DNA from: Myxococcota bacterium
Lineage (GTDB): Bacteria; Myxococcota_A; SURF-8
Reading direction: 5' to 3'
Length of the DNA stretch: 64,000 nucleotides
NCBI GenBank assembly: GCA_965140415.1
Contig: OZ223209.1
Coordinates: 4,992,001-5,056,000, forward strand
A program made the position numbers and the translations under genes. Positions 11,368 to 61,983 of the stretch are shown one piece after another. Every line of letters begins with the position of its first letter. The first letter of the stretch is position 1. A model generated the notes under the pieces. It did not search any database and had not been told where the DNA came from. It saw only the letters and a program-made list of their open reading frames with translations.

Positions 11368-11477
11368 GTATTTTGAGTGGGTATCACTTGAAATTGGTTA
11401 CGGTTATGACCCTTCGTTCTGAGGCGAAGCCGAAGAATCTCTTATATACGAATTATTGTTCATCATTAGCGATGTAG

Positions 11478-11640
11478 TCTTGTAGCGGCGAGGCGTAAGC
11501 CCGCCGAAAAGCACTAGTTGATTTCAGGGTGGCGCGGGCTAAACCGCAGGTTTGCCCGTGTTCGAGGGCCACATGGGCAAGCTTCGTTTCCCTCCGCTTG
11601 GCCCATGCCACACGTCGGCTTACGCCTCGCCGCTACAAGA
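11478..11640. repeat. REPIN-like element: perfect 24-bp inverted GTAG-type REP arms enclosing a second (GTGGC...GCCAC) palindrome pair
   Basis: TCTTGTAGCGGCGAGGCGTAAGCC (11478-11501) is the reverse complement of 11617-11640. Inner hairpins at 11533-11560 and 11572-11607. Confidence 0.8.
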
Positions 11641-11682
11641 AGTCAAGAAAACACATATCGTTAAAAATGATTAAAAATCGCT

Positions 11683-12648
11683 CTACAACTCCCCATCACC
11701 ATCCGAAGTCGATTCCACTTCCGGCCAGAAATGCGCGTTACCGGCTGCATCCACCGGCTGGTGCCCACTCAAGTGACAGTTGTAGCAAGCTAGCTTGCTG
11801 CGAGCGGCGTAGGCGTCGTCTTCATAATGACAATACGAACAACTCGGCATGCCATCCGATTCCGGGTCCAGTGTGCCACGGCGCTGCTCGATGACATCCA
11901 GGTGCACCCCGTGCAACTCGTCGGAAATCGAACCGAAAAGATGGCAATAGGTGCAGGTGAGAATGTCACCGTGATATTCGGATGAGATCTGGTGACAGCC
12001 GCCGCAACCGGGATTGAGAGCCGAAAGGTTGAGACTCGCCAACTCGCTACGGAATCCGTTATTGAAAAACGTGCTGTGGCCGGTTTCGTGGTCGCTGAGC
12101 AGGTCATAGGGCTTCAACGAACCGGTAAAGGAAGGGGCATCTCCTTGCGAAGGCTCCATACCACTTACCGTTGCACTATCAGGTAACCAGTTGTGACATG
12201 AGGCAGCACAGTTCGCACCACCGGTAAATGCTGCCTGCCGGGCAGCATCACGGAAAGTCTTGACGGAATGTCCCAGGCCCAGTTCATCCACCGGATGACA
12301 ACCACTGCAATCGGAAAGTTCCGCCTCGCTGTGATAGCCGCGCTGGGGCCAGGTGATGCCTAAGTGAACGCCGGGAGCGGGCATAACCGGCTGTTCCCAC
12401 TCCAATCCGTTCCCTGCCTGCGCCATCCAGTCGCGCGCACCCAGTCCTGCCGTATCGACGATTTGAGACAGCGAACTCTGACTGTGACAGTCGGTACAGT
12501 TCGTGGACAGCGTCGGCAACACGATGGTTTCGCTTTCGGATTCTTCGTTGCCATCCATATCGCCATCGATACTCTCGCCGTTGTCGTCACCACAGGCCGG
12601 TAGACACAGCAGCAGCAACAGCAGCAAAAACGGAAGATGCCTTTTCAT
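11683..12648 (-). CDS. Multiheme cytochrome c lipoprotein (6 CxxCH + 1 CxxxCH)
   Basis: Signal MKRHLPFLLLLLLLCLPA-C. Heme motifs CTDCH, CSGCH, CAASCH, CGGCH, CTYCH, CSYCH, CYNCH. Start moved to ATG 12648. Confidence 0.85.
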   Translation of the reverse strand: MKRHLPFLLLLLLLCLPACGDDNGESIDGDMDGNEESESETIVLPTLSTNCTDCHSQSSLSQIVDTAGLGARDWMAQAGNGLEWEQPVMPAPGVHLGITWPQRGYHSEAELSDCSGCHPVDELGLGHSVKTFRDAARQAAFTGGANCAASCHNWLPDSATVSGMEPSQGDAPSFTGSLKPYDLLSDHETGHSTFFNNGFRSELASLNLSALNPGCGGCHQISSEYHGDILTCTYCHLFGSISDELHGVHLDVIEQRRGTLDPESDGMPSCSYCHYEDDAYAARSKLACYNCHLSGHQPVDAAGNAHFWPEVESTSDGDGEL

Positions 12649-12680
12649 ATGATTTCCCTTTTTGGGGTTACATTGTGTTT

Positions 12681-13292
12681 TCATGGCATCCAGCCATCCT
12701 TGGTCATTTCCTGGCAGACCGCACGCCGGAAAGAACATTCCTCGATGTGCCGATATCCCAGGTTCGGTCCTGGATACTTCATGTAGTCCAAGCCGACGCC
12801 GTTATATGCCCCGCCGAAAAAGGCCGAGCGGATGGCGCGGTAGGCCATCGTTAAAAGAGGCATGGAAAGTTCCGCCTGCAATAACACCTGCAAGCGTTGG
12901 TCGTAACTACACTCCAAAAACGTTTTCTGATACTCGCCTTTTGCGGTCAGATCCATCAGCGTGGCTAGCGCCGCCGCCTGCTCTTTGAAAGGATAGTTTC
13001 CATCCAGCAGCATGTTCACGGCACAGGCATCCAGTCCGCCAGGCGCTCCGGTTGGGTCGATCTCCGCTCCCGGTACGATGGTATTGACGACTTCCGCCAG
13101 AATCTGCTCGGTTTCGCCTTCTGGAGTCATACAGGCATTGGGCAGCGGCGCACGAGTAAAACCGGGCGACTGGAACTCGGAAGCGGAAAGCACCTGTTGA
13201 GCGGCCATCGATCCGAGCAATAATCCCAATGACCAACCGCCCATCTTGTGCAGGAAGGCGCGCCGGTCGCAGGTGGTGTTTAATTCGGTCAT
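12681..13292 (-). CDS. TAT-exported small subunit (gluconate 2-dehydrogenase subunit 3-like)
   Basis: DRRAFL twin-arginine signal; TIVPG...PGGLDA, F...S..QR..VL and YMKYPGP motifs. Lies directly downstream of a GMC flavoprotein. Confidence 0.75.
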   Translation of the reverse strand: MTELNTTCDRRAFLHKMGGWSLGLLLGSMAAQQVLSASEFQSPGFTRAPLPNACMTPEGETEQILAEVVNTIVPGAEIDPTGAPGGLDACAVNMLLDGNYPFKEQAAALATLMDLTAKGEYQKTFLECSYDQRLQVLLQAELSMPLLTMAYRAIRSAFFGGAYNGVGLDYMKYPGPNLGYRHIEECSFRRAVCQEMTKDGWMP

Positions 13293-13321
13293 GATATTCT
13301 GTCCTTTTACCCAAGACATTA

Positions 13322-14761
13322 TCAGCGCGACTTGACGATGTACGCCGCGATGCGTTCGGCATTGGCCGCAATGGTATGTGCCGGATTGACGCCCGTGCCT
13401 CCGGGAATCGCCGAACCATCGGTGCAGAAGATCCCGGGATGACTACGCAATTCTCCGTTTGCATCGCAGGGTGCCTTGTCCGCGTCATCGCCGATGCGGC
13501 AGGTCGCCAGCGGATGCGCGTCGCCGTGCTCGAAGGTGTCGTAGGCGGTACGCATCAGTTTCGCTCCGTTTTCGTTGGCGATACGCCGCCCGATTGCAGC
13601 GACTTTCTCAATATAATCGCGCATATGATCGGTCATCGGAATGTCGAATTCGAGCATTCCCTTGCTGTTGACCGTCACTTCGCCCTGACCATCCACCAAT
13701 CCGATGGCGAGGGTGGAAATCAAGCGGTCGGGATAGTTGTCTTTAAGAAACTGCTTGAATTCCAAGCCGAAGGGGATTTTCGGGGCGCTGCCGTCATCGG
13801 GCACGACATCCATTGCTGCAAATAGCGCAGGTGGTCCCGCGCCCGCGTGAATGGTTACCTTGGCTTCTTCCCAGAACGCATAGGTAATGACTCCGGCATT
13901 ATTACGCCCCATATAGGAGTAGGCTTTAGGGAACGTGTCGGGCAAGAGGAAAACCAGGGCTACATCCCCGTTTTGATTGAAGTTCTTCCCAACCTGCGGA
14001 TGCAAATCGGTCAAATAAGACTTGCTGCGCAGTAAAATCGCCGGGGTTTCCAGCGCACTTGCCGCCATAATGACGGTGTCGGAAAACGCCTTCTGCTCCA
14101 GGTTATGCGAATCCTTATAATATACGGCATAACCGGCTCCCTCTTTTTCAAGATGATCGACCCGGCAATTGACGCGAAATTCGGCACCTTTGGCCTCCGC
14201 CTGGGGAATGTAATTCTCTCCCAAATGCTTTTTCCGACCAAAGGGACAGCCGCACATGCAGAATCCGCATTGCAGACAATCCACAATCGGATACATAGTG
14301 CGGTCGCAGGTCAACCCCATATTATCCAGCAGCATGGCGAAGACACCTCCCGCCTTGGGCACGTCCGCCCAACTTGCGCGGGAAATCTGCATTTTCTCTT
14401 CGACCATCTTATAATATGGATCCAGCACCGAACGAGTGACGGATTTCGGCCATACCGAATATCCATTCTGATCCTTATAATCGAAGACTTCACTGGGAGC
14501 GCGCAACGATGCCGCTGCATAGGTCAACGAGCCACCTCCCAAGCCGCGACCATAGCGCATAAATACCTTGTAATCCTTGGAAGTATAGGCGACCGTCAAT
14601 TTTCCCTGGTTGAGCAGACTCCAGTCCATTTTGAAGTCTTTGGTGCTCATCCTGGGGCCTTGTTCCAAAACCAGCACCTTGCGGCCATCATCGGCCAGGC
14701 GTAATGCGGGAATGGAGCCGCCGAAACCGGAACCCACTATAATTGCGTCAAAGGTTTCCAC
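13322..14761 (-). CDS. GMC family FAD oxidoreductase (cholesterol-oxidase-like) with a Cys-rich Fe-S motif
   Basis: IVGSGFGGS..ALRLA..VLVLEQG, GRGLGGGSL, CLQCGFCMCGCP, HPLATCRIG, DGSAIP..GVNPAHTIAANAER. Confidence 0.9.
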   Translation of the reverse strand: METFDAIIVGSGFGGSIPALRLADDGRKVLVLEQGPRMSTKDFKMDWSLLNQGKLTVAYTSKDYKVFMRYGRGLGGGSLTYAAASLRAPSEVFDYKDQNGYSVWPKSVTRSVLDPYYKMVEEKMQISRASWADVPKAGGVFAMLLDNMGLTCDRTMYPIVDCLQCGFCMCGCPFGRKKHLGENYIPQAEAKGAEFRVNCRVDHLEKEGAGYAVYYKDSHNLEQKAFSDTVIMAASALETPAILLRSKSYLTDLHPQVGKNFNQNGDVALVFLLPDTFPKAYSYMGRNNAGVITYAFWEEAKVTIHAGAGPPALFAAMDVVPDDGSAPKIPFGLEFKQFLKDNYPDRLISTLAIGLVDGQGEVTVNSKGMLEFDIPMTDHMRDYIEKVAAIGRRIANENGAKLMRTAYDTFEHGDAHPLATCRIGDDADKAPCDANGELRSHPGIFCTDGSAIPGGTGVNPAHTIAANAERIAAYIVKSR

Positions 14762-43889: not shown

Positions 43890-43971
43890 GGCGAAACGGG
43901 ATTTCGTACTATGAAAACGCGCCGCTACGAATGACATAGCGGCCTTGAGCTGATAGCTGGAGGATGTGACC

Positions 43972-45030
43972 ATGGCGAAGAAACTCATGAAGGGAGCCGA
44001 AGCGATTGGCGAAGCCGCCATCTGGGCCGGATGCAAATCCTACTTCTGCTACCCGATCACGCCGCAAACCGAAGTGGCCGAATACCTGGCCCGGCGTATG
44101 CCCGAAGTCGATGGCGTATTTCTACAGGCGGAAAGCGAACTGGCTGCAAGCAACATGCTCTTCGGAGCCGCCGCAACCGGCACGCGCGTCTTTACGACCT
44201 CATCTTCGCCGGGCATCAGCCTGATGCAGGAAGCCATTTCCTACATCGCCGCCGCCGAACTGCCGGTGGTGATCGTCAACATCGTGCGTTCCGGCCCCGG
44301 TCTGGGCGGCATTCTACCGGCGCAGTCGGACTATTTCCAGTCCACCAAGGGTGGCGGTCATGGTGATTACCGCACGATCGTACTGGCTCCCAGCACGGTG
44401 CAGGAAGCGGTCAGCATGATGATGAAAGCCTTCGATATCGCCGATCAATACCGCAATCCGGTGATCATGGTAGGTGACGGCCTGATCGGACAGATGATGG
44501 AACCGGTGGAGTTCCCGGAAAACTACCAGCCCAAGGTGGTCGATCATACCGGTTGGGCCACCGATGGCTGCAAGGGTCGCAAACCGCATCTGGTCAAGAC
44601 CCTGTTCCTGGACGCCCAGCTTTGCGATCTGCACAATCAGAACCTCGAAAAGAAATACAAAGAAATCGAAGCGAATGAAAAAGACTGGGAAGACTGGAAC
44701 CTGGACGACAACTATGAGTTGTTGATCGTGAGCTACGGCACGATGAGCCGCATCTGTAAAACCGCCATCGAAGATCTGGCCAAAGAAGGCATCAAAGTCG
44801 GCATGGTGCGTCCCAAAACCCTGTGGCCCTTCCCCGGCGAAGCCATTGCACGCGCTGCGGACAAACCGGAAGTCAAGGCGGTATTGTCGGTGGAAATGAG
44901 CATGGGTCAAATGATAGAAGACATCGAACGTGCACTGCACGGCATCAAGCCGGTGCATTTTTACGGACGCGCCGGTGGCGTTGTGCCAACGGTAGAAGAA
45001 GTAACCACCAAAATCAAAAGCCTGTTCTAA
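43972..45030 (+). CDS. vorB: 2-oxoisovalerate:ferredoxin oxidoreductase alpha-type subunit
   Basis: YPITPQTE, QAESE, SSSPG.SL.QE, GPGLG.I.P.Q.DY..STKGGGHGDY. Confidence 0.85.
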   Translation: MAKKLMKGAEAIGEAAIWAGCKSYFCYPITPQTEVAEYLARRMPEVDGVFLQAESELAASNMLFGAAATGTRVFTTSSSPGISLMQEAISYIAAAELPVVIVNIVRSGPGLGGILPAQSDYFQSTKGGGHGDYRTIVLAPSTVQEAVSMMMKAFDIADQYRNPVIMVGDGLIGQMMEPVEFPENYQPKVVDHTGWATDGCKGRKPHLVKTLFLDAQLCDLHNQNLEKKYKEIEANEKDWEDWNLDDNYELLIVSYGTMSRICKTAIEDLAKEGIKVGMVRPKTLWPFPGEAIARAADKPEVKAVLSVEMSMGQMIEDIERALHGIKPVHFYGRAGGVVPTVEEVTTKIKSLF

Positions 45031-50557: not shown

Positions 50558-52663
50558 TCAGAGCGTGCGCAGCAAGGTCAATCCCTTTTTCGTGCCGCTG
50601 CGGTCGGCGTCGGTCGAGTAACAGATGGTGCCGCAACGCAGGCAACGCGAGGCTTCACGCAACAGGTCTTCGTGAGTGATGGTCTGATCCACTTCGTCGT
50701 AGGAGTAGATGCGCTCGGCGGGATTCAATTCGTCGAAATGCACGCGCTGGCTGCGATCCACACCGTTCAATTCCGCCAGTTTCGATAAAGTCAGCGGCTT
50801 TTTCTGGATGTTGGCGGGAACGCTCATGTCTTCGCCATTCAGGAAACAATGGATGGCGCGCGCCGCTTTGCGGCCTGAACCGATGGCCGTGACCGCCAGC
50901 GCCGGACCGGTGAAACCGTCGCCTGCGGCGAAGATCTTGGGAACGCCGGTCTGGCAGGTATCGTCGTTGCCGTCCAACGTCCCCCAACGGGTGACTTCCA
51001 ACCCGCGCTCTTTCAAGGATTCCGGCACGAAAGAGGGGTCCACTTTCTGTCCGATGGCGGCGATAACCGTATCCAGTTCGATCACGTGCTCGGAACCTTC
51101 TTTGGGCACCGGGCGACGGCGACCGCTGGCGTCGGGTTCTCCCAGTTCCATTTCGATGACTTCCAAGCCGGTCAGCACGTTGTTCTCGTCGGCGACCAAT
51201 TTCGTGGGTGCGTTCAGGAACAGCAGCTTTACACCCTCTTCCTTGGCGGCATGGATTTCGACCGGGTTGGCGGGCATTTCCTTTTCGGTGCGGCGATAAA
51301 TGATACTCACCTCTTCCGCGCCTTCACGTAGCGCCGAACGGGATGCGTCGATGGCGGTATTGCCGCCGCCGATGACCGCAACGCGTTTGCCCATCGTTAC
51401 AGAGATGCCCTGCTCGCGCTTGGCCAGGAAATTGATGCCGCCCCATACGCCTTCGATGCTGTCTTCGCCTTCCAGTCGCATGGTGCTGTTGATCCAGGCA
51501 CCGATCGCCACCAGCACGGCGTCGTATTTCTCCTCCAGGCCATCCAGCGTGATGTCGCGTCCCAGGCGAACGCCGGTTTTGGCGGTCACACCCATGTCCA
51601 AAATTCCCTGGATATCCCAGTCCAGAATCTTTTTCGGCAGGCGATATTCCGGGATGCCGTAGCGCAGCATGCCGCCAAGGTGGTCTTCGCTCTCGAAGAT
51701 GGTCACATCGTGTCCGAGCCGACGCAGGAAGTAGGCGGCTGTCAAGCCTGCCGGACCACCACCTACAACGGCGATGTGCTTGCCGGTATCGGGCAGAACG
51801 GGCAACTTGATGTGCTGATCGTCCAGCCGTTCCCAGTCCGCCACGTAACGCTTAATCACATTATGAAACACCGGATCGTCACCAGCCGCCGAACGGCGGC
51901 AGCCTTCTTCACAGGGAGCGGGGCAGATGCGCCCGCACACGCTGGGCAAGGGGTTGCGATCCTTAATGATGGTCAACGCTCCTTCGAAATCGCCTTCGGC
52001 GGCGGCTTTGACATAGTTGGGAATATCGATCTGTGCCGGGCAGATCTGGCGGCAGGGAGCCAGGCATTCGTCTACGGTATTCAGATGCAACAGCGAGGAA
52101 CTCAGCGTTTCCAGTTGAATGACGCCGTGCGGGCAGACGCGCACGCAGGCTCCGCAGCCTCTACAAGCTTCGGCGTTGAAACGCGGATAACCGTCCGGTC
52201 CCATGCGAATGGCGTCGAATGCGCAGGCTTCCACACAGGAACCGAATCCCAAGCAACCCAGGGTACAGTTGCTGTCGCCGTCGTAAAATTCCGCCACCGC
52301 CTGGCAGGAAAGTGCGCCATCGTAATGGAACAGTTCGCCCGCGCGCTGGTTGCTGGAGCAGTAGCGCTTGGCCAGCGACGGCTCCTTGACTTCGACCTTG
52401 ATGCCCATAATGGCTCCAACCGCCTGGGCAATGTCCGGGCCTCCGGCCACGCAGCCATCGACGGGCGCTTCTCCTTTGACGATGGCTTCGGCCATCGCGC
52501 CGCAACCCGGCATGCCGCAGCCGCCGCAATTGGCTCCCACCAACGCATCGGCCACCTGATCGATACGCGGGTCCTGTTCCACATAAAATACCTTGGAGGC
52601 AAACGCCAGCCCGGCGGCTGCCGCTAGTCCTAATCCCAGCATCAACAAGGTTGCGCTAATCAT
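50558..52663 (-). CDS. rnfB: RnfB fused to a GltD/NfnB-like FAD/NAD(P)H oxidoreductase
   Basis: N-terminal TM helix, NCGGCG.PGC, GCLGFGSC..AC and CRGCGAC..VCP (RnfB). Then APC...CP, CGRICPAPCE..C, VGGGPAG, IGGGNTAID, YRR, EA.RCL.C. Confidence 0.88.
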   Translation of the reverse strand: MISATLLMLGLGLAAAAGLAFASKVFYVEQDPRIDQVADALVGANCGGCGMPGCGAMAEAIVKGEAPVDGCVAGGPDIAQAVGAIMGIKVEVKEPSLAKRYCSSNQRAGELFHYDGALSCQAVAEFYDGDSNCTLGCLGFGSCVEACAFDAIRMGPDGYPRFNAEACRGCGACVRVCPHGVIQLETLSSSLLHLNTVDECLAPCRQICPAQIDIPNYVKAAAEGDFEGALTIIKDRNPLPSVCGRICPAPCEEGCRRSAAGDDPVFHNVIKRYVADWERLDDQHIKLPVLPDTGKHIAVVGGGPAGLTAAYFLRRLGHDVTIFESEDHLGGMLRYGIPEYRLPKKILDWDIQGILDMGVTAKTGVRLGRDITLDGLEEKYDAVLVAIGAWINSTMRLEGEDSIEGVWGGINFLAKREQGISVTMGKRVAVIGGGNTAIDASRSALREGAEEVSIIYRRTEKEMPANPVEIHAAKEEGVKLLFLNAPTKLVADENNVLTGLEVIEMELGEPDASGRRRPVPKEGSEHVIELDTVIAAIGQKVDPSFVPESLKERGLEVTRWGTLDGNDDTCQTGVPKIFAAGDGFTGPALAVTAIGSGRKAARAIHCFLNGEDMSVPANIQKKPLTLSKLAELNGVDRSQRVHFDELNPAERIYSYDEVDQTITHEDLLREASRCLRCGTICYSTDADRSGTKKGLTLLRTL

Positions 52664-52733
52664 GCTCGTGCCTCTCGTATAGCCATAATCATCGTAGAAA
52701 ACCTTCCCTGGCGGTCGTGGCAGACCACCTGGA

Positions 52734-53306
52734 TCAGATCATCCCTTTGAACGCGAAAAAGGTCAATGACATCATACCGGCTGTGATCAATCCCAGAGCA
52801 GTGCCTCTCAGCGGTCGGGGAACGGGAGCGAATTCGAATTTCTCCCGGATACCCGCAAACAATACCAATGCCAACCCGAAACCCGCCGCAGCGGAGAAGG
52901 AATACACTAAGCATTGCACGAAGGTATGGTCATTCTTGATGTTCAACAGCGCCGCACCCAGCACCGCGCAGTTGGTGGTAATCAGCGGTAAAAAGATCCC
53001 CAACGCCTGATACAGGGTCGGCAGGGTTTTTCGCAGAAACATTTCAACCAGTTGCACCAGCGCCGCAATCACCAGAATAAACGCCAGCGTACGCAGATAT
53101 TGCAGATCGTAGGGAACGAGCAGGAAATGCTCGACGATCCAGGCGATGGCCGCCGCCAATACCAGAATGAACTGCACCGCAAGCGCCATGCCGATGGCGG
53201 TATCCATCTTCTTGGAAACACCAAGGAATGGGCAGTTTCCAAGGAATTGCGCCAACAAAATGTTGTTGACGAAAATCGCGCTGATGATCATAAGGAAGTA
53301 GTCCAT
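52734..53306 (-). CDS. rnfA: Rnf subunit A
   Basis: [32 protein letters not shown]. Confidence 0.93.
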
Positions 53307-53356
53307 CGAAACCCTCTATCCGATTAGGTTAGCGAATCCGTATTCTTTTCAATTAC

Positions 53357-53959
53357 TTAAGCCTTCGCCACCTTGGGACGTCCCAAAGCGTTCATGATAC
53401 CCAGCATCAGACCCAGGCAGATAAAGGCGCCCGGTGCCTGCTGCATGAAAGTAAATGGTTCGAAGCTGGAACCGAACAGGCTAATTCCCATGAAGGTTCC
53501 CGCTCCCAGTACCTCTCGCAAGGAAGCCAAGGCGATCAAGGACATGGTAAATCCGGTACCGATGCCCAGACCATCGGCAGCAGAGAGCAACACGCCGTTT
53601 TTACTGGCAAAAGCTTCCGCTCGTCCCAAGACAATGCAGTTCACGACAATCAGTGGAATAAAGATTCCAAGACTCTCGGAAAGACTGAAGAAATAGGCTT
53701 TCATCAGGATTTCCACCGCCACCACGAACGTCGCAATGATGACGATATAGGCCGCAATGCGCACCTCTTTGGGAATGATCTTGCGCACGGCGGAAATAAT
53801 CATGTTGGAACAGGCCAGCACGAAAATGACCGCCACACCCATACCGATGGCGTTTTCCACCTTGGTGGTGACAGCCAATGTCGGACAGAGACCGAGCACC
53901 AACCGGAAGGGCGGAAGTTCTTTCCATAAGCCTTTTGTGAATTCTTTGCCGAAACCCAC
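53357..53959 (-). CDS. rnfE: Rnf subunit E
   Basis: LGLCPTLAVT, IPLIVVNCIVLGRAEAFA, PGAF. Confidence 0.93.
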   Translation of the reverse strand: MGFGKEFTKGLWKELPPFRLVLGLCPTLAVTTKVENAIGMGVAVIFVLACSNMIISAVRKIIPKEVRIAAYIVIIATFVVAVEILMKAYFFSLSESLGIFIPLIVVNCIVLGRAEAFASKNGVLLSAADGLGIGTGFTMSLIALASLREVLGAGTFMGISLFGSSFEPFTFMQQAPGAFICLGLMLGIMNALGRPKVAKA

Positions 53960-53992
53960 AGTATGTCTCCTTCTTCGAAGGTTATCAGCCGC

Positions 53993-54574
53993 TTATTGGG
54001 CTGCCTTGAGAATCTCGTCTTTATGTTCTTCAAACAGCTTAATGCCGTCAGCCAGTGCCTGACAGACCGCACGCGAAGTGACCGTTGCACCGGTCACGGC
54101 GTCCACGCCGCCACCATCGGCTTTGACCTTGAAAACGGTTTGCGTGCTCATGCCTTTGAATTGCTTGGTGAAAGTCGCTTCCTTGGCGCGGGTACCGACA
54201 CCGGGCGTTTCACTCATGGTGGTAATGCCGATGCCGGTCAACTTGCCGGTATTCAACTCGAAACCGATCATCACGCCGACCGTGCCGCCAAAGCCTTTTC
54301 CGAACGATTCCAGCGCCACCGCATACGGTTTGCCGTCTTTCTTGGCCGGGAAAAGCAATACGGGATTTTTCTGCCCGACATCCAGTTTCTTGCGGTCGTT
54401 GAGCAGGTCGTTGGAAGCATCTTGCAAAACGGCCTTGACCGCCGGCATCTGCTTGTTTTCCAGCACCTGGATTTCAATGCGCTCCTTGGTGCCGTTGTTC
54501 AGTGCAGCCAGCGAAAAACCGCTGATCAACGAAATGATCGAAAGCGATAAAATGATGTGCAACCACTTAGGCAT
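53993..54574 (-). CDS. rnfG: Rnf subunit G (FMN-binding)
   Basis: ATG 54574; TM anchor, GFGG, ETPG.G, DAVTGATVTS (FMN-Thr motif). Confidence 0.9.
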   Translation of the reverse strand: MPKWLHIILSLSIISLISGFSLAALNNGTKERIEIQVLENKQMPAVKAVLQDASNDLLNDRKKLDVGQKNPVLLFPAKKDGKPYAVALESFGKGFGGTVGVMIGFELNTGKLTGIGITTMSETPGVGTRAKEATFTKQFKGMSTQTVFKVKADGGGVDAVTGATVTSRAVCQALADGIKLFEEHKDEILKAAQ

Positions 54575-55415
54575 GGATCTTCTCCATCGGAATCGATTTG
54601 GGGCGAATGCGGTCGAACATGGGAGCCGCCATGTTTCCAAGCAGTACCGCAAAAGGAACCACTTCCATCCAGATGCCATAGACCCGGATCAACACGACCA
54701 GAACTCCGGCCATCAAACCGAACAGAATCTTGGACAGCAGATTGGCAGGACTTGTGGTTTCGTCGGTCACCAGGAAGAATGCGCCCAGCATGACGTTGCC
54801 GGTGAGTAGCTGCTCCACGGCAGTCAGTGTCGTTTCGGGATACACCGCATGGAAAATCAACCCACCAATAAAGACTCCTGCCAGAAACGCGATCGGCACG
54901 ATGCGGTTGACCAGTCCCAATAGCACAAGCAACAATCCCCCGGCAGCCATCGCGTAGGGACAGGCGGTTCCCAATGTGACACCACCCACCGGTTGCAAAT
55001 GCAGTGGCCAGGAGAGCAGCACCATCAGGTAGCCGATCATCGCCGGGTGGAAGGGATAGCAACCCAAGCCGCCGAAAATCTGTTTGGCCACCACCGAAGC
55101 CAGCGCCGCGCCGATGATAATAATCCAGAAAGGCACCGACGGCGGCATCAGCAGGCCGAAAACCAGACCCATCACCACTGCATGGCCATCCAGCGCATAG
55201 ATAGGCTGGCGCATGAAGTGCTGTGCCAATGCCTCGGCGGCCACACTGGAAAATACGGCCAGCGCCAGGATGAGAACGGCGTTTAAGCCATGCAATACCA
55301 CTGCCGCCGCAACTGCGGGCAACAGCGCCAGCGCCATGGCATAGTGGGAAGCGACGGTACTTGCGCCGATCTTTCGATGTGGCGGCGGTCCGACGGTTAA
55401 AATAGGATCAGACAT
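54567..55415 (-). CDS. rnfD: Rnf subunit D, shortened (FMN loop apparently missing)
   Basis: PPH, DG.A.V.G...GL..P, K..FGGLG..PF.PA, GAFF..TD.TTSP, FAVL.GN...P..D; only 282 aa. Confidence 0.85.
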   Translation of the reverse strand: MSDPILTVGPPPHRKIGASTVASHYAMALALLPAVAAAVVLHGLNAVLILALAVFSSVAAEALAQHFMRQPIYALDGHAVVMGLVFGLLMPPSVPFWIIIIGAALASVVAKQIFGGLGCYPFHPAMIGYLMVLLSWPLHLQPVGGVTLGTACPYAMAAGGLLLVLLGLVNRIVPIAFLAGVFIGGLIFHAVYPETTLTAVEQLLTGNVMLGAFFLVTDETTSPANLLSKILFGLMAGVLVVLIRVYGIWMEVVPFAVLLGNMAAPMFDRIRPKSIPMEKIHA

Positions 55416-55486
55416 AGTGATTCGCTCCTCGATTTCGATTCACTGCCCATGCACGATGACTCGAACATGGACGTTGTAAGCGAAGG

Positions 55487-56722
55487 TCAATCGTTTAGTT
55501 TTCGCGCGTTTTTGGCCAGCCGGAACCATTGCACCAAAGGACGTGCGCTGGGACAGACGTAGGCGCACAAGCCGCAGTCGATGCAATACTGCAAATCCGG
55601 GGCATCGTCGTATTGGCCATATTCACAAATACGACCCATATTCTGCACCTGTAACTTGGCCGGGCAGACCTCGATACAAGCACCGCAATTGACGCAAGGA
55701 CGTGAAATTACTTCATCTTGAGAAGTAGCAGCCAGCACCGTCACGCCTTCGATTCCCGGCAGCACCGGAGTATCGAGTGAAAACGTCGGCGTTCCGGCCA
55801 TCGGACCACCCAGCAGAACGCGATCGTGAGTGTCGATCTGAGCGCCGCAGGCGTCCAATGCCGCACGTAACGACGCTCCATAAGGAATACGCACGTTCTG
55901 CGACTTGCCATCCCGTGTAACTACCGTTAAATGCTGGAAAGCCGGTGGCGCTCCGGTGGTTGCCAGGATAAAGAGCGCGCGCGCCAATCCGAACGGAATC
56001 ACGCGCAACCCCTTGGAATCGGCTCCCTGTCGCACCAAGTTGCTCTTTAAAACCCTATCGTGCGCTTCGGGGTAACGTAAACCGACCGGCAGCACTTCGA
56101 CATCGGCATTACCCAATGCCTCCTGCACCGCAGATACGGCAGGCTTCGGCACAGCCAGCAGCATGCGCTGCGCGCCGGAAAGATCCCGGCAAAGCTGCAT
56201 GATGGCGGCCAACCCTTCCAGGCTGTCCTGCAACAGTTGGGCGCGCGAGATCAAGCCCAGATCCTGATCGCAGGCATTGACAACCAGAATCTGCACGTCG
56301 CCTTTCAGCGGCAGCAGTTCTTCACGCACCAGACCGGGCAGATAAGCCTGTAAGGCACTTTCCGTTACCCGCTGACGGATCGTCGCCGAATCGGGCAGCA
56401 CCAGCTTTCCCAGTTTCAGTGGCGCGGGAAGCTCTCCCGGCGTCACCTTAAAAGCCTGAGCCGCTCTCAAGCGGGGTGGAAAGGGCGCTTCACCAACGGC
56501 GCTCACCGTACCGTCTAATGGAGCGATCAGCTTGACATCCTCGTCCTGAGCCAAGACCGCTCCCGCCTCAATGGCATCGCCTTCGGCCACGACCGCAGGG
56601 AACAGGCGTCCACGATCATCAACCAGCGGCCACAGCAACTCCTTGGCCGACACGGTTTTAAAAGGCGATTGGTGATTTGCGTAAGAAAGTCTAGGCTTGC
56701 TAAATCCTCGAAACCATTGCAT
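55487..56722 (-). CDS. rnfC: Rnf subunit C, divergent
   Basis: RnfC-N pattern (V..GD.I..G..LA...AP..GTV), GGPM.G, CVNCGACIEVCP, CIDCGLCAYVCPS; first gene of the C-D-G-E-A-B operon. Confidence 0.8.
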   Translation of the reverse strand: MQWFRGFSKPRLSYANHQSPFKTVSAKELLWPLVDDRGRLFPAVVAEGDAIEAGAVLAQDEDVKLIAPLDGTVSAVGEAPFPPRLRAAQAFKVTPGELPAPLKLGKLVLPDSATIRQRVTESALQAYLPGLVREELLPLKGDVQILVVNACDQDLGLISRAQLLQDSLEGLAAIMQLCRDLSGAQRMLLAVPKPAVSAVQEALGNADVEVLPVGLRYPEAHDRVLKSNLVRQGADSKGLRVIPFGLARALFILATTGAPPAFQHLTVVTRDGKSQNVRIPYGASLRAALDACGAQIDTHDRVLLGGPMAGTPTFSLDTPVLPGIEGVTVLAATSQDEVISRPCVNCGACIEVCPAKLQVQNMGRICEYGQYDDAPDLQYCIDCGLCAYVCPSARPLVQWFRLAKNARKLND

Positions 56723-57383
56723 GGATTATCGTCCTAGCGTCTGAAGTTGAAAGGCTCTCGACTGCACTAGCCGCCCCTGCCGGGTGCGGCGCTACAACGA
56801 ATGATCAGTCATCGATCTAGTTTGCTAAACGGTTTGGATCTTTTCGATATTCGACACTCTTTACGGCCTGAATCGCAAGGTGAACCCTTTCGATTCCGCC
56901 CATTTATGAATACGACAGTCTCTGGAAGGCGTCAATAAAAACCTCGACGGCACCCGATGCGGTTTTTGCCTTTCCATTTGGTAAAAAAGCTTTTTCGGTT
57001 AAAAGTGCCGATCGCGGATTTCCACAGCAGCAGGCTTTCTTTCGGATATTGCAAGTGTCCGAACCTGTTGAAATCATACAGTCTGGGCGATTTCCCGGCT
57101 ACCATTCGATTTTCATTCTCCAGCCTTTGGAGATGAAAGTCTTTAATATTTCAGGCATAATCAATCTTACATATTCCACACACGAATAGATCATATAAGT
57201 AAATACAATAACTCACTAAAGGCTTTTTCTTGAGCTTGCCCGGCAACCGTGCAATCATAACTCGCAATGTGTCGGTGTGTTTTTCTGGAGAGGAAAACAC
57301 GTCGCATTCGTAATCTGCCGGGAAATCCCGGAATCAAAACGGTAGTCTCCCCACAACTTGTCAATTGGAACGGAGTGCATGCG

Positions 57384-59129
57384 TTGAAACCGATCAAAGC
57401 CGTTCATCTCGTTTGGATTCTTGGAGTTTGGGCCGTTACGATCGCCTTGGGCGGATGGGTGCTGGGCGAACAGGACAGCGGTGACCAACTTGCCAACCGT
57501 TTCGGTCCAGTCCCCTGGAACCATGAACTTCACGCACGCCAGGCGGTGCGGAATTGTCAGATCTGCCACCACAAGTCCAAAGCAGGCACCAGTGATCCGC
57601 AAGCCTGCTCCGAATGCCATACAAAACCCGACGTTTCCGATTCCATCTTCGCCGTGGCTCCATTAAGAGGAGAAGTCAAGGTTGTACCAGGTGAAAAGAA
57701 ACCCAAGCCGCGCCGGGTCGCTTTTCACAAAAGTTGCCAGGGCTGCCACAAAGCCGTCGGCAAAGGACCGACTTCCTGTCGTGACTGCCACCAGTCCATT
57801 ATGGTTTCCGAAGGCGGCGGTACTAAAATGGAACACATAACCTATGCCGTCGATCACGATCTGGCCTGCACACGCTGTCACGAAGAAAACCGCCCCACGC
57901 TGATTCCCGGCGATGCCTGGGAAGATTGTGCATCCTGCCACGACGGCGCAGGTCATCTGCATCAGGTGTGGCCTGACGATGCAAAATACGATCACAGCGC
58001 CTTGTTTAAAGGAAAAGCCAGCGAGGTAGTCTGGGATCACCGCGCCCATAAATCCTATGAACTCGACGCGGATGGTGAACAGGTGAACTGCCTGAGCTGT
58101 CACCATCAAGAGCAGGATACAGACCCGCAAGAATACCGCAAATGCGGCGACTGCCACAAGGAACGCGACGGAGCCATGCAATTCGACGGCAAAGCGGCGC
58201 CTTCGCGTGCAGATGCTCTACATAAGGTCTGCTTGCGCTGCCACAACGCGCAGAAAGAACAGCCGGAAGAAATACCCGGCAACTGCCATGATTGTCACCG
58301 CACCAGCGCCAGCAATCGTCCCACAGATTTCGGAATCGCCACCTGGTCGCATAACGGTCATGCACAAGGGCTTGGAGACGATTGCACCGTCTGCCACCAT
58401 ACCGATGAGCCAGACAGCGAGACGATGACCGCTTGCCGTTCTTGCCATTTCGAAGCGGAGGCCTCGGATTTCGCTGCGCTGAAGCACAGCACCAATACCA
58501 CTTGTATCACCTGCCACGAGCAGGAATCGGTGGAAGGAATCCCTGCTGCTCAATGGAAAAACATCCAGATTTGCGATGCCTGTCATCAGCCTGTCGGAGC
58601 CGACCGGGAACAAAGCAGAGCCACTTTTGTAAAGAAACATTCCCCGCTGCAACTGAAGAACGTGATTCACGAGCAGTGCTGGGCCTGCCACAAACAGGAA
58701 GGCAAAGGACCGCAGGCCGGAGAATGCCGAGTCTGCCACGCACTGCCGCGCAGCCGTCAGATGGTGCTGCAATACGGCGACGATTCCCAGCCGCTTAAAG
58801 AGAAGCTGAATCATCTGGCACCCGACACCTACAACACGCATCGCTTGCACGTCGATGCAGGCGGCTTCCCCTGTGCGGATTGCCACCACAACATGAAACC
58901 GAGCGAGGAAGTCACGCAAAAACTGGCGAAGCTGGTCATTCCGGAAGGTAAAAACTGCAACAGCTTGCAGGCCAAAGCGGATGACTGTCTGCCGGGCAAG
59001 ACAGCCCCGCAGCACTGCGCCAACTGCCACGACAATCCCGAGCTTTCCCTGCCACAGGCGGTGACGGTGCGCAAAACGTTGTGCAACGACTGCCACACGG
59101 AGTTCGGTCTGGAAGCCCCCGTGAAATAA
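57384..59129 (+). CDS. 19-heme cytochrome c (cytochrome c3-type repeats, Hmc-like)
   Basis: 19 CxxCH motifs counted; c3-like W.H..H and CxxCHH patterns. N-terminal hydrophobic signal/anchor after TTG 57384 (GGAG upstream); start uncertain. Confidence 0.9.
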   Translation: MKPIKAVHLVWILGVWAVTIALGGWVLGEQDSGDQLANRFGPVPWNHELHARQAVRNCQICHHKSKAGTSDPQACSECHTKPDVSDSIFAVAPLRGEVKVVPGEKKPKPRRVAFHKSCQGCHKAVGKGPTSCRDCHQSIMVSEGGGTKMEHITYAVDHDLACTRCHEENRPTLIPGDAWEDCASCHDGAGHLHQVWPDDAKYDHSALFKGKASEVVWDHRAHKSYELDADGEQVNCLSCHHQEQDTDPQEYRKCGDCHKERDGAMQFDGKAAPSRADALHKVCLRCHNAQKEQPEEIPGNCHDCHRTSASNRPTDFGIATWSHNGHAQGLGDDCTVCHHTDEPDSETMTACRSCHFEAEASDFAALKHSTNTTCITCHEQESVEGIPAAQWKNIQICDACHQPVGADREQSRATFVKKHSPLQLKNVIHEQCWACHKQEGKGPQAGECRVCHALPRSRQMVLQYGDDSQPLKEKLNHLAPDTYNTHRLHVDAGGFPCADCHHNMKPSEEVTQKLAKLVIPEGKNCNSLQAKADDCLPGKTAPQHCANCHDNPELSLPQAVTVRKTLCNDCHTEFGLEAPVK

Positions 59130-59380: not shown

Positions 59381-60964
59381 TTATTGCCACATCAGCGCCA
59401 TGGTGCCCATGACTTTGTATACGCCATCGGGTTTGTCGCCGTTGGGATCGGCCAGCGCCATACCAGGAATGAAATAGGCTTGCTCGATGCCAAAACGCAG
59501 ACCCACATGTTCCTTCTGCGGCCAGATGTCCAAGCGTACCGCGCCTAAGACTTCCGTTCCGATATAGCGGCTGTCGGTGGGACGACGCAAGTGGTTGACC
59601 GGCGTCCCTCCTTTTTCGAAGGAGTAATAGGCGTGAGAGAAATAAGACGGCGTGGTGATGACCAGCGCACCCGCCAGGAAAGTCAGATGTTCTTTCAAGC
59701 CCAGGTTGAGATGGGGGCTGTAGCGCAATTGCGGCAGATAATAAATGGTGTTGGTAACACGTCCCTGCGTCGCGACCAGATCGATGCCCTTGGGCGCTTT
59801 GGCGGTGCGGTTGGGATTGTCCAGCACTTCAACGCTGCGCGCGGTAATCAGCGGCAGCATTTCATCGAAGAAGATCATACCCACATTGAAATCGGGGTCG
59901 AAGAAAAAGGCGTGGCTGGTATCGTCGTAGGGATCGTTGTCGCCGGAAGCGTAACCGACTTCGAATTCGATGTTGAAACCGACCTCGACGAACTCCAGTT
60001 TGGCCTGTGCGACGGCTCCGTAGGAGAAGAGATCCAGACCGTCCGGAGTGGATTCCTGCACCCAGCGGGTGGTGTTTCCTATAATCAAGGCAGCTTCGTA
60101 GTTCAATTCAAAGGCCATCTCCAACTCGTTGGGCGCGAAGGTGAAGCGGTTCTGCCCGTTGATATTGAAAACGTAGGTTTTCAGCTTGTCGCCGTCGTCG
60201 TCTTCCTGCCAGCGGTACGTAAAGGAAAAACCGTTACTGAATTCAGGCATGCGATAGTATAGGCCCACCGTGGCCATCGCAGCGATGTCGCCGTCGCGCA
60301 GTTTGGCGTTTTCATCCTGGTATACCAGATCTCCGGCCAGCACCAGGGTCAGGTATTCACCCCAGGCACCTTCGCCGGTTAGCGGTAAAAACGGAGTGGT
60401 GGCAAAGAGCACGCGGTCCACGATGTCACCGCGACTGGTAGTGCCGAAGCGCTCGTGGTTGTCTTCGCCGCTATTACCCAGTACTCCCAAGCCATAACCG
60501 CTGGTCATCTGACCAACTTTCAGCAGGCCGATGGGAGAATACCATTGGATGTAGGCGTTGCGCGGCAGGATTTCTTCGATATGTGTGCCTTCGTTTTCTT
60601 CGCGACGGTCGTAGCGCCAGTAGCCTTCCGCGAAATTCTCGTGATCGCCATACAACTGGCCGTGCAGAATATCCAGATCGACCTTGAAATACAGATCTTT
60701 CCAGTTCAACGACGGCGACCAGCGGATGCGATGCTCACCCCAACTGTGGATGGGATTCTGGGTCTGCGGCGTTTCTGCGTCCAGCGCGAAGTCGCTGAGA
60801 TAGAAGAACTCGCGGCGATACTCACCGGCGACCGGATTCCAATGTACTTCGCCGTCGGTGGAACGCGGTTTCACTTCGGCGGTATAGCCCGCTTGCGCAG
60901 CTTGCAGCGGAAGCAGCCAGAGAATGGCAAGACACATCAGCAGGGTACGATTCACATGTTTCAT
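59381..60964 (-). CDS. Outer-membrane beta-barrel (porin/alginate-export-like)
   Basis: Signal peptide (AQA), amphipathic strands, G...VG.M...YGLG motif, GYASGD, F.FDPD, C-terminal LMWQ. Confidence 0.65.
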   Translation of the reverse strand: MKHVNRTLLMCLAILWLLPLQAAQAGYTAEVKPRSTDGEVHWNPVAGEYRREFFYLSDFALDAETPQTQNPIHSWGEHRIRWSPSLNWKDLYFKVDLDILHGQLYGDHENFAEGYWRYDRREENEGTHIEEILPRNAYIQWYSPIGLLKVGQMTSGYGLGVLGNSGEDNHERFGTTSRGDIVDRVLFATTPFLPLTGEGAWGEYLTLVLAGDLVYQDENAKLRDGDIAAMATVGLYYRMPEFSNGFSFTYRWQEDDDGDKLKTYVFNINGQNRFTFAPNELEMAFELNYEAALIIGNTTRWVQESTPDGLDLFSYGAVAQAKLEFVEVGFNIEFEVGYASGDNDPYDDTSHAFFFDPDFNVGMIFFDEMLPLITARSVEVLDNPNRTAKAPKGIDLVATQGRVTNTIYYLPQLRYSPHLNLGLKEHLTFLAGALVITTPSYFSHAYYSFEKGGTPVNHLRRPTDSRYIGTEVLGAVRLDIWPQKEHVGLRFGIEQAYFIPGMALADPNGDKPDGVYKVMGTMALMWQ

Positions 60965-61212
60965 GGTACATCCCATCGTGAATGGATTGTTTCGGTCTAT
61001 CCTTAGACCACACAGCCATCTATAAGACAGATGATCTTATCTCTCACCACGAACCCCCATCGACGAGCCTCATGCTCGTTTTTCGGGAATGTTTGCCGGT
61101 GAGGCGCACGTTACAAAGAAATAGTAAGGCGTTTATAACATACGTTCGGGAAAGCTGTAAACTTTTTGTTGCTGCATGTAGTCAGAAAAGGGATTCTTTC
61201 CGGCACCCGGAA

Positions 61213-61983
61213 TCAATCGAAGGAGGATGGTGCACTGTTGACATGATAGCCGGTAAAGGCAATCGTCAAGCCGTACAATCGCCAATTGTCGCGGTCGGTG
61301 GTGTGCCAGATCTGACTGAAGGTCAATCCAATTGCAAGACCGCCACGCTTGTTCAAGCCGAATTCATAACCGATGCCGCCGTCTAGTGACCAGCGATTGA
61401 CATAGGAAGAATCCCAACCCGCTCCGGCACGCAAATACAGTCCTTTGACGGGAAAAAACGTGCTCATCAAATGCAGAATCTGCGAGCCTCCGGCGTTGCC
61501 CTGCTCCAGACTGTCGATCAGCACATCCAGCGAGTAATCCACACCCAATAAAGCCCAGGGGCGGATGCACCAGCCGATACGAAAGTTGGCGCGAAACAGA
61601 ATAGAAGGTTTGTCGCCGCCGGATTCCTGTAGAATAACGCCGGGGTCCAACCCTGCGTACAATTCCTTTCGGGCGGGAAAGTCGGTGTTCTTGCGTTCGG
61701 TGGGCTGCAAAACGCCATCGTCGGAATACGCATTGTAGCCCGATTGCTCGTCGTCTGAAGAATCGGTAGAAGGCGAAAGCTCTTCTTGCTGTTCTACAAT
61801 TTCACCTGGATCATTCGCCTTTTCAGGGGCAATCTGTTGCCCCTGCGAGCGCACGATGGATTCCGGGGTTACCTCTTGCGCCAATGCCGACAAAGAAAAC
61901 ATGGAGATTGTCAGCATTAGCAGACAGACACAAAGAACGCTTTTTGCCGGATGCAAAAAACTGAATGAAGAAATGTGATACAT
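61213..61983 (-). CDS. Small outer-membrane beta-barrel protein with an acidic N-terminal region
   Basis: Signal peptide (ALA); strands GLYLRAGAGW, GGIGYEF; start uncertain. Confidence 0.55.
   Translation of the reverse strand: MYHISSFSFLHPAKSVLCVCLLMLTISMFSLSALAQEVTPESIVRSQGQQIAPEKANDPGEIVEQQEELSPSTDSSDDEQSGYNAYSDDGVLQPTERKNTDFPARKELYAGLDPGVILQESGGDKPSILFRANFRIGWCIRPWALLGVDYSLDVLIDSLEQGNAGGSQILHLMSTFFPVKGLYLRAGAGWDSSYVNRWSLDGGIGYEFGLNKRGGLAIGLTFSQIWHTTDRDNWRLYGLTIAFTGYHVNSAPSSFD

Follow-up and report, generated by a model that had tools for sequence, protein, structure and literature searches.

In anaerobes, Rnf is a central site of energy coupling, and annotations usually call it a ferredoxin:NAD+ oxidoreductase (NAD, nicotinamide adenine dinucleotide). 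What can such a complex do when its RnfC and RnfD subunits have lost their flavin sites? The question is raised by an rnf cluster of a Myxococcota bacterium, whose genome forms one contig of 5.98 Mb (OZ223209.1). The stretch analysed, called here the window, covers 64,000 nucleotides at positions 4992001-5056000 of this contig. It carries rnfC-D-G-E-A-B on the minus strand, and a gene for a cytochrome with 19 CxxCH motifs diverges from rnfC on the plus strand. An earlier note had described the cluster as a rewired complex that may act as a one-way conduit to a periplasmic multihaem cytochrome. With confidence a little above even, we read it as an ion-translocating NAD(P)H:periplasmic-cytochrome oxidoreductase within the Rnf2 lineage, in which electrons would pass from RnfB to RnfA/E, then to RnfG and the haems.

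The cluster departs from solved Rnf complexes most plainly in RnfC and RnfD. RnfC reads ...TESALQAYLPGLV... and ...LVVNACDQDLGLIS... in place of the GGATFP and (N)GAECEP of solved RnfC chains; in the alignment to these chains, AYLPGL occupies the GGATFP site of Acetobacterium woodii and NACDQD the NGAECEP site. Pfam gave no SLBB match in this protein, and Complex1_51K scored 22.5, under the cut-off of 31.2. Two CxxCxxCxxxCP motifs are kept, with all eight iron-sulfur (Fe-S) cysteines. RnfD runs ...LLSWPLHLQPVGGVTLGTACPY..., and its match to PF03116 is broken in two, profile positions 135-168 having no equivalent. In the alignment to solved chains, nothing corresponds to the TTATPL threonine loop of 9eri_D, 7zc6_D and 8ahx_D: the 282-residue protein has deleted the whole periplasmic five-helix linker, including the threonine flavinylated with flavin mononucleotide (FMN), reported as T156 in A. 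woodii (PMC11889175) and T153 in Clostridium tetanomorphum (PMC9588780). Arg130 and Glu185, which are described as contacting FMN in C. tetanomorphum RnfD (PMC9588780), are replaced by Tyr and Thr. These comparisons support the prediction of an RnfC with no FMN/NADH site and an RnfD with no flavinylation site, and they bear out the earlier note, which had reported the lost RnfC motifs, the two retained [4Fe-4S] motifs and the missing RnfD loop.

The riboflavin site of RnfD has changed in another manner. Its reported ligands in A. woodii are N123 and D249, and the N123A exchange abolishes enzyme activity there (PMC11889175). In the window protein, residue 123 is His, a further His stands at position 78 where canonical chains have Ser, and the Asp equivalent to D249 is kept in FFLVTD. 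His78 never varies across the sequences aligned from the wider clade around the window, and His123 occurs in 16 of the 17. Judged from the riboflavin site described in PMC9588780 and PMC11889175, positions 78 and 123 probably head helices III and V, beside that site.

At the entry side, RnfB (701 residues) begins with an N-terminal membrane helix, followed by the RnfB Fe-S domain PF04060 (residues 43-72) and a single 2x[4Fe-4S] ferredoxin domain (137-183). The RnfB-like part comprises residues 1-190; rnfB models match residues 2-210, and the solved RnfB chains 7zc6_B and 9eri_B match residues 6-191. The distal polyferredoxin part is replaced by a flavoenzyme module made of Fer4_20 (PF14691, 1.7e-23) at 201-279 and the Pyr_redox_2 domain for flavin adenine dinucleotide (FAD) and NAD(P)H (PF07992, 3.8e-36) at 296-597, with the motifs GGGNTA and YRR. 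The closest solved chains to this module are 9bov_A (9.7e-135), 9n5u_A, 8oh5_C, NfnB 4ylf_B (6.7e-96) and 5jca_L, and the C-terminal tail also aligns to 9bov_A and 9n5u_A. RnfB scored 520.4 against NF009410, whose cut-off is 516. All this supports a complete NAD(P)H flavoenzyme module of the GltD/NfnB type, as had been proposed.

RnfA and RnfE align to A. woodii chains 9eri_A and 9eri_E ungapped and with identical numbering. The cysteines of the membrane [2Fe-2S] cluster are kept (C25/C113 in RnfA, C25/C108 in RnfE). So are T111, N112 and L108 of RnfA and R67, L103 and V106 of RnfE, residues which have been tied to Na+ binding and gating in A. woodii (PMC11889175). RnfG is anchored in the membrane and bears the flavinylation motif VTGATVTS in its periplasmic FMN domain; the GAT threonine of this motif is invariant in 11 of 11 aligned sequences. 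The earlier description of an intact RnfG motif and intact RnfA/E cysteine pairs was therefore accurate.

Orthologous clusters were found in 6 of the 10 genomes of the window's order, including that of the window. Within the order, identity to the window is 76-88% for RnfA and RnfE, 72-79% for RnfB, 55-70% for RnfG, 53-66% for RnfD and 37-41% for RnfC. All six RnfC have neither flavin motif and keep the eight cysteines, and all six RnfD have 282-285 residues and no loop. In two of the six genomes (G004 and G006), the rewired cluster is the sole rnfD-bearing cluster. In G004, rnfB-gltD is split into overlapping open reading frames (ORFs) of 87 and 650 residues (positions 11373-13468 of locus L019, the same as L083), the result of a frameshift or a sequencing error. 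The window genome also holds a canonical rnf1 with apbE, 1.6 Mb from the window cluster; such a second system had been named as something to look for. Its order is apbE, rnfC (with GMGGATFP and AECEP), rnfD (350 residues, with TTATPL), rnfG, rnfE, rnfA and rnfB (295 residues), and its RnfD matches the whole Pfam model with 391.6 bits. A second apbE lies elsewhere in the genome.

Loci beyond the order were gathered in four samples. The window RnfC and the RnfG_DVU2794 model were each searched against the same 400 genomes of the window's phylum. The RnfD pattern [GW]xYP[FM]HP[AV][LMV][VI] was searched against 185,579 species genomes and gave 37 loci, 10 of them already sampled. Finally P0075, a threonine-less looped RnfD, was searched against 300 genomes of the phylum of a Thermodesulfobacteriota-labelled hit; 51 genomes matched and the best 20 of 51 were taken. 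The pattern-search loci are labelled Myxococcota, SAR324, Planctomycetaceae, Acidobacteriota, Gemmatimonadetes, Thermodesulfobacteriota and Desulfarculia, together with Rickettsiales labels that are probably wrong. The resulting degenerate class comprises 61 loci: the window, 16 loci from the RnfC and RnfG queries, 24 new ones from the RnfD pattern and 20 from the P0075 query.

In all 61 loci, the threonine at the FMN column of RnfD is absent and the FMN-contacting Arg and Glu are lost; the GGAxFP and ECEP motifs are absent wherever RnfC is visible. Representatives and all loose motif matches were aligned to verify the FMN column. Loose flavinylation-motif matches in L092, L170 and L176 lie at residues 28, 17 and 300, outside that column, and alignment shows no threonine there in L092, L098, L170 or L176. 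Seventeen further loci (10 + 7) have both the RnfD threonine and the RnfC motifs, and none of the 78 is mixed. As judged from these alignments, chance decay does not explain the motif losses: the other five clusters of the order and all degenerate-class loci examined elsewhere show them too.

RnfB is the long fusion wherever it is complete in the degenerate loci from the RnfC/RnfG-query and pattern searches, and the 20 P0075 loci comprise 14 long fusions, two short RnfB (L171 and L172), one fragment, two loci with none visible and one cut by the contig end. A protein search with RnfB residues 1-330 gave 2899 proteins at E<=0.001. Among the 120 matches listed, almost all have 680-740 residues, with a few shorter partial entries of 465-577, and the rows checked carry PF04060 and PF14691; they include Desulfovibrio inopinatus, Desulfovibrio sp. 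X2, Pseudodesulfovibrio, Spirochaetota and Acidobacteriota. The short-RnfB loci, which have a decahaem cytochrome, share the RnfC and RnfD losses, and their RnfG fits the DVU2794 model best, at 287.8 bits. This suggests a ferredoxin-donor version of the same logic in these loci. The co-occurrence of RnfC/RnfD degeneration with the RnfB fusion and with cytochromes, which the earlier note had put up for testing across genomes, is found in most of these loci.

Other features of RnfC and RnfD are conserved. Both RnfC [4Fe-4S] motifs are complete in 17 of 18 tails from distant lineages, L092 having Ser for one Cys; in some loci, the second motif ends in CT, CI or CV rather than CP. In L086, L097, L100 and L102 (labelled SAR324 or Deltaproteobacteria TL4), a single ORF of about 760 residues encodes RnfC with both Fe-S motifs, a short linker and then RnfD. 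The Fe-S motifs, the fusions and the conserved RnfD pocket argue that this arm is under selection. The suggestion that it is "electronically dead" does not agree with these features.

RnfC-like genes of 532-768 residues with no FMN/NADH motifs were also met in L116, L117 and L118 (labels Bipolaricaulota, Pseudohongiella and Gammaproteobacteria), and L116 and L117 have RnfD-like genes with the His signature. No rnfG, rnfE, rnfA or rnfB was found within 20 kb of them. They may represent a different system built from the C/D pair, and these loci, with RnfC- or RnfD-like genes only, were left out of the locus counts.

The origin of the rewired type was assessed with a tree of RnfE and RnfA, which are subunits without the traits in question. 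Its rewired rows were the window, 14 loci from the order and phylum samples and 18 pattern loci; duplicates, loci without rnfE or rnfA, and the P0075 loci were left out. The 33 rewired loci stand on one side of a single branch and the 10 canonical loci on the other (Shimodaira-Hasegawa-like approximate likelihood ratio test, SH-aLRT, 99). The tree demonstrates a single origin of the rewired type among these loci. In the same tree, rnf1 of the window genome (L004, C1:3460001-3478000) has a very long branch of 2.64 changes per column; the canonical rnf of other families in the phylum stands closer to the rewired clade.

The cytochrome partner was then compared among loci. All 19 CxxCH motifs of the window cytochrome, counted in ORF 57267-59129 in agreement with the earlier note, are conserved in three orthologues. 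An orthologue is present in all six genomes of the order with the rewired rnf, adjacent in four and elsewhere in two, and none was found in three genomes without the rewired rnf (G001, G007, which is 79% complete, and G009). The gene is divergent from rnfC in the window genome and in G006, and lies on the same strand directly upstream in G002 and G003. The protein was also tried as an HmcA hexadecahaem cytochrome and rejected, with 76.9 against NF045713 (cut-off 400).

Genes with at least three CxxCH flank 46 of the 61 degenerate-class loci (the window, 13 of 16 RnfC/RnfG-query loci, 14 of 24 pattern loci and 18 of 20 P0075 loci) and none of the 10 canonical loci of the RnfC/RnfG-query samples. 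These cytochromes are non-orthologous, with 4, 5, 7, 8, 10, 11, 12, 13, 16, 18 or 19 haems, and lie upstream, downstream or divergent. One Myxococcota family has a divergent 7-haem cytochrome; most loci of the Thermodesulfobacteriota phylum have 4, 5 or 8 haems directly upstream of rnfC; the short-RnfB loci L171 and L172 have a 10-haem cytochrome upstream; and some loci have 11-haem and 3-haem cytochromes behind rnfB. A 16-haem cytochrome and a 5-haem protein stand behind rnfB in loci labelled Myxococcota, Planctomycetaceae, Acidobacteriota, SAR324 and others, an operon type that makes up 13 of the 37 pattern-search loci. In L087 (6964-11371), this set consists of a 16-haem cytochrome of the c3 family, an iron-sulfur protein with Fer4_11 and an NrfD-like membrane protein carrying a fused 5-haem domain; by its annotation, made in L087 only, it is a predicted Hmc-like quinone-interacting module. 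Similar gene sets occur in L085, L086, L089, L094, L095, L097 and L099-L102. That unrelated cytochromes were recruited, and at different positions, speaks for a functional tie over inherited synteny.

Two further genes were seen among the cytochromes. In L066, the two cytochrome genes behind rnfB, with 11 and 3 haems, are separated by an RseC/MucC-family gene (9286-9771; PF04246, 100.7 bits). The window itself has a 372-residue stop-to-stop frame with six CxxCH, another multihaem cytochrome, at 11686-12801 on the minus strand (genome C1:5003686-5004801).

We read the complex as an NAD(P)H:cytochrome c oxidoreductase because the only complete cofactor chain that can be followed is NAD(P)H, FAD, 2x[4Fe-4S], RnfB clusters, RnfA/E [2Fe-2S] and RnfG-FMN. 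NAD(P)H would reduce the FAD of the NfnB/GltD module fused to RnfB, and electrons would pass through the two [4Fe-4S] clusters of the module and the retained RnfB clusters to the membrane [2Fe-2S] of RnfA/E. They would then cross to the covalent FMN of periplasmic RnfG and leave by way of the membrane-anchored 19-haem cytochrome for the cytochrome pool of the periplasm; none would return via RnfD and RnfC to NAD+. The reaction would be reversible, and coupled to Na+ or H+ movement through RnfA/E if the RnfA/E ion path described in PMC11889175 is right. RnfC and RnfD would be retained at least as a scaffold, perhaps as a second wire, and would perform no NAD+ or FMN chemistry. In this dsrAB-bearing organism, the cytochrome pool could feed the membrane complexes of sulfite reduction; in relatives, an NrfD-type quinone module behind rnfB could be the recipient. 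What the sequences show is which genes are present, which motifs are lost or kept, what occurs together and that the type arose once; every step of this electron flow, its direction and its ion coupling are inferred. Of the one-way conduit of the earlier note, the exit from RnfG to a periplasmic multihaem cytochrome fits the flanking genes, whereas the dead return arm is not supported in the form proposed.

The U-shaped path of Rnf might instead be kept with its substrates swapped: NAD(P)H would react at the GltD part of RnfB, ferredoxin or another cytoplasmic carrier at the RnfC [4Fe-4S] clusters, and riboflavin or another cofactor would sit in the His/His/Asp pocket of RnfD, the cytochrome being a side branch or a bridge from RnfG to RnfD. 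We consider this rather unlikely. It would account for RnfC Fe-S motifs conserved across phyla, for the RnfC-RnfD fusions and for the conserved His78, His123 and Asp at the riboflavin site, and it would give ferredoxin the other entry that it needs once the ferredoxin-accepting distal polyferredoxin of RnfB is replaced. The Rabus group, moreover, sees Rnf2 as linking the NADH and ferredoxin pools (PMC11887813). However, all solved complexes use the RnfD FMN to connect RnfG-FMN with riboflavin; here this FMN lacks an attachment site, and its Arg and Glu contacts are lost in 61 of 61 loci. The residue whose exchange in N123A is reported to kill the A. woodii enzyme (PMC11889175) is His in the window. 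L171 and L172, with short RnfB and decahaem cytochrome, are also devoid of the RnfC NAD site, and ferredoxin and the cytochrome are their only evident partners.

Flavin-based bifurcation or confurcation at the NfnB-like FAD of RnfB, by which electrons of NADPH would be split uphill to ferredoxin via the [4Fe-4S] pair of the module and downhill via RnfA/E and RnfG to the cytochrome, seems improbable. The FAD of NfnB is a bifurcating site, and the best solved relatives of the module include NfnB 4ylf_B, 5jca_L, 9n5u_A (a chain named NfnA) and 8oh5_C. Yet in the fusion the [4Fe-4S] domain separates the FAD domain from the RnfB clusters, an order that suggests one linear chain; a second acceptor site of high potential, like the [2Fe-2S] of NfnA, is not evident, and GltD-type modules also serve as plain NAD(P)H dehydrogenases. 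That the cluster is a decaying, non-functional paralogue of rnf1 is scarcely credible. RnfC is indeed the fastest-evolving subunit, at 37-41% identity in the order against 76-88% for RnfA and RnfE, and rnfB is in two ORFs in G004. All six rnf ORFs of the window are nevertheless intact, the same architecture recurs across several phyla in one clade, and it is the sole rnf in two of the six genomes of the order. In addition, Rnf2 subunits are reported to be abundant in Desulfobacteraceae proteomes (PMC5109826, PMC11887813).

Several points weigh against an NAD(P)H:cytochrome oxidoreductase. The C/D arm is conserved and not decaying, so that an electron-transfer role for RnfC and RnfD is possible; the loss of the linker might bring the riboflavin pocket within direct reach of RnfG-FMN or a haem. 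Transfer from NAD(P)H to low-potential c3-type haems would offer little driving force unless a higher-potential acceptor follows. The 19-haem gene is distant from rnf in G005 (51 kb) and G004 (about 1 Mb), and 15 of the 61 loci have no adjacent cytochrome gene, five of these being on contigs cut within or near the cluster. The locus counts express association and not independent events, since degenerate queries were used and many loci are related. The Rabus group, as mentioned, treats Rnf2 as a link between the NADH and ferredoxin pools (PMC11887813). Finally, the oxidoreductase reading is drawn from sequence comparison.

How does this cluster relate to known systems? Tol2-type Rnf, or Rnf2, was described from Desulfobacula toluolica Tol2, with an RnfB of about 700 residues bearing NAD+-binding sites and an RnfC without an NADH domain (PMC5109826, PMC11887813); PMC5109826 cites Woehlbrand et al. 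2016 for it. Doerries et al. reported that Desulfococcus multivorans has both Rnf1 and Rnf2, the rnf2 cluster including a 15-kDa cytochrome, and that Desulfobacterium autotrophicum is equipped alike (PMC5109826). Rnf2 is described as part of the Desulfobacteraceae core genome and as constitutively abundant (PMC11887813), and abundant subunits are noted in both reports. By its sequence features, the window cluster is probably a member of this published lineage. It shares an RnfB of about 700 residues with an NAD(P)-binding flavoenzyme part, an RnfC without Complex1_51K and SLBB domains, a cytochrome gene in the cluster and an A. woodii-type Rnf1 alongside, as in D. multivorans. Thermodesulfobacteriota-labelled loci fall in the same RnfE+RnfA clade, and the P0075 loci of that phylum share the RnfC/RnfD losses in 20 of 20 cases and the long RnfB in 14 of 20. 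The window differs by its membrane-anchored, divergent 19-haem cytochrome, where a tetrahaem gene of about 125 residues upstream of rnfC is usual, and by its linker-less RnfD of 282 instead of about 320 residues with His at 78 and 123; the tetrahaem-type loci, unlike the window, keep a threonine-less RnfD loop and Asn123.

Compared with canonical Rnf (A. woodii 9eri, C. tetanomorphum 7zc6, Azotobacter vinelandii 8ahx), the window has the same order rnfCDGEAB, ungapped RnfA and RnfE with the cluster cysteines and ion-site residues, the RnfG FMN threonine and the two RnfC [4Fe-4S] motifs. It differs in the RnfC FMN/NADH site, the RnfD FMN threonine, the change of the riboflavin-ligand Asn to His, the flavoenzyme module in place of the distal polyferredoxin of RnfB, and the presence of a cytochrome partner. 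Na+-translocating NADH:quinone oxidoreductase (Na+-NQR) offers an analogy of architecture only: the flavoprotein that would admit NAD(P)H stands on the RnfB/NqrF side, an NADH site is absent from the RnfC/NqrA homologue, and the cyt16-type relatives have a quinone-interacting NrfD-like protein on which electrons can end. NqrB, in contrast, retains riboflavin and covalent FMN and is itself the subunit that reduces quinone; Fe-S clusters are absent from NqrA, there is no relationship between NqrF and the GltD module, and NCBIfam Nqr models score far under their cut-offs on window proteins.

A multihaem cytochrome is also genetically tied to rnf in Methanosarcina (MmcA) and in the dhcA-rnf operons of Desulfovibrio, and the window RnfG is above the cut-off of the DVU2794-type model; those operons differ by their short RnfB. 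A Methanosarcina-type assignment was rejected, the six _Methano equivalog models for rnfA to rnfG all lying far under their cut-offs on window proteins. For the Methanosarcina acetivorans complex, Suharti et al. reported no use of NAD(P) and proposed RnfG as donor to cytochrome c (PMC4023990), and a preprint describes the cofactor sites of its RnfB, C, D and G as conserved. The cytochrome of the Desulfovibrio rnf operon was hypothesized to connect the periplasmic cytochrome pool with NAD(P)H or ferredoxin (PMC4287179).

The rewired architecture named in the earlier note is thus real but not new: a large RnfB with an RnfC without NADH domain is already in print (PMC5109826, PMC11887813), and the earlier interpretation, partly supported here, was largely anticipated. 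The literature on cytochrome-linked Rnf held statements on RnfB and RnfC and none on loss of the RnfD flavin site, in a search that did not extend to Woehlbrand et al. 2016 or the supplement of PMC11887813. What appears new, as far as searched, is the family-wide joint loss of the RnfD flavin site and the RnfC site, as well as the linker-less His/His RnfD subclade that includes the window, the breadth of taxa and the pattern of non-orthologous cytochrome recruitment. In a 2025 review, the cofactors of RnfD, A, E and G are given as strictly conserved, and Desulfo- taxa go unmentioned (PMC12174285); absence of the RnfD flavin site in 61 of 61 loci contradicts this as a general rule.

A widespread lineage that includes Rnf2 would then be unable to perform the textbook ferredoxin:NAD+ reaction as drawn, and metabolic models of sulfate reducers and of uncultured groups labelled Myxococcota, SAR324, Planctomycetaceae and Acidobacteriota may assign the wrong reaction. 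The lineage also provides a natural experiment. Ion translocation has been placed in RnfD, gated by FMN (PMC9588780), and in RnfA/E (PMC11889175); a complex without RnfD FMN, if it still pumps, would decide between the two paths. A broader proposal, which we put forward only tentatively, is that all cytochrome-linked bacterial Rnf, including the short-RnfB decahaem loci, form one class without RnfC NAD+ reduction and RnfD covalent FMN. Its members would be ion-pumping ferredoxin: or NAD(P)H:cytochrome c oxidoreductases, in which the RnfC Fe-S pair and the RnfD His/His/Asp pocket make a new non-FMN wire. If this holds, ion pumping must sit in RnfA/E since RnfD FMN is absent, which would settle the dispute on the Na+ path in Rnf and NQR.

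The features of the cluster are collected in the table below. Assignments were made from Pfam and NCBIfam profile scores against curated cut-offs, and motifs were read from translations. RnfA, RnfE and RnfG are above their NCBIfam cut-offs, and RnfD and RnfC are below theirs. The start of rnfG is most likely Met36 of its ORF, the residue that matches the beginning of RnfG orthologues. For the cytochrome, the most likely start is TTG 57384, giving a protein MKPIK..., which is preferred because its orthologues begin there. A sigma-70-like scan of the divergent region gave a single match, a count no higher than in shuffled sequence.

Features of the rnf cluster and the divergent cytochrome gene (positions in the window).
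Feature	Coordinates	Strand	Details
rnfB fused to NfnB/GltD-type module	50558..52663	-	701 amino acids
rnfA	52734..53306	-	190 amino acids; TIGR01943 272 vs cut-off 229.3
rnfE	53357..53959	-	200 amino acids, GTG start; TIGR01948 242.8 vs cut-off 213.4
rnfG	53993..54574 (ORF 53993-54679)	-	193 amino acids from Met36; NF045876 RnfG_DVU2794 223.5 vs cut-off 205
rnfD	54567..55415	-	282 amino acids; TIGR01946 188.9 vs cut-off 207.05
rnfC	55487..56722	-	411 amino acids; TIGR01945 148.9 vs cut-off 245.95
Divergent intergenic region, rnfC/cytochrome gene	56723..57383	.	one sigma-70-like match
Membrane-anchored cytochrome c, 19 CxxCH, c3/c7 family	57384..59129	+	ORF open from 57267

Around the cluster, two minus-strand ORFs of 531 and 256 residues (59381-60976 and 61213-61983) are convergent with the cytochrome gene and gave no Pfam match at E<=1e-4. 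The genome has one haem-copper oxidase gene and 17 frames with at least three CxxCH. A dsrA gene is found at C1:1450456-1452729 (580.9 bits, cut-off 392.85), with a dsrB-like gene adjoining; the relatives of the window genome are labelled Myxococcota metagenome-assembled genomes. Finally, an ORF at 43966-45030 of the window carries the POR_N and PFOR_II domains of 2-oxoacid:ferredoxin oxidoreductase and is a possible ferredoxin source.

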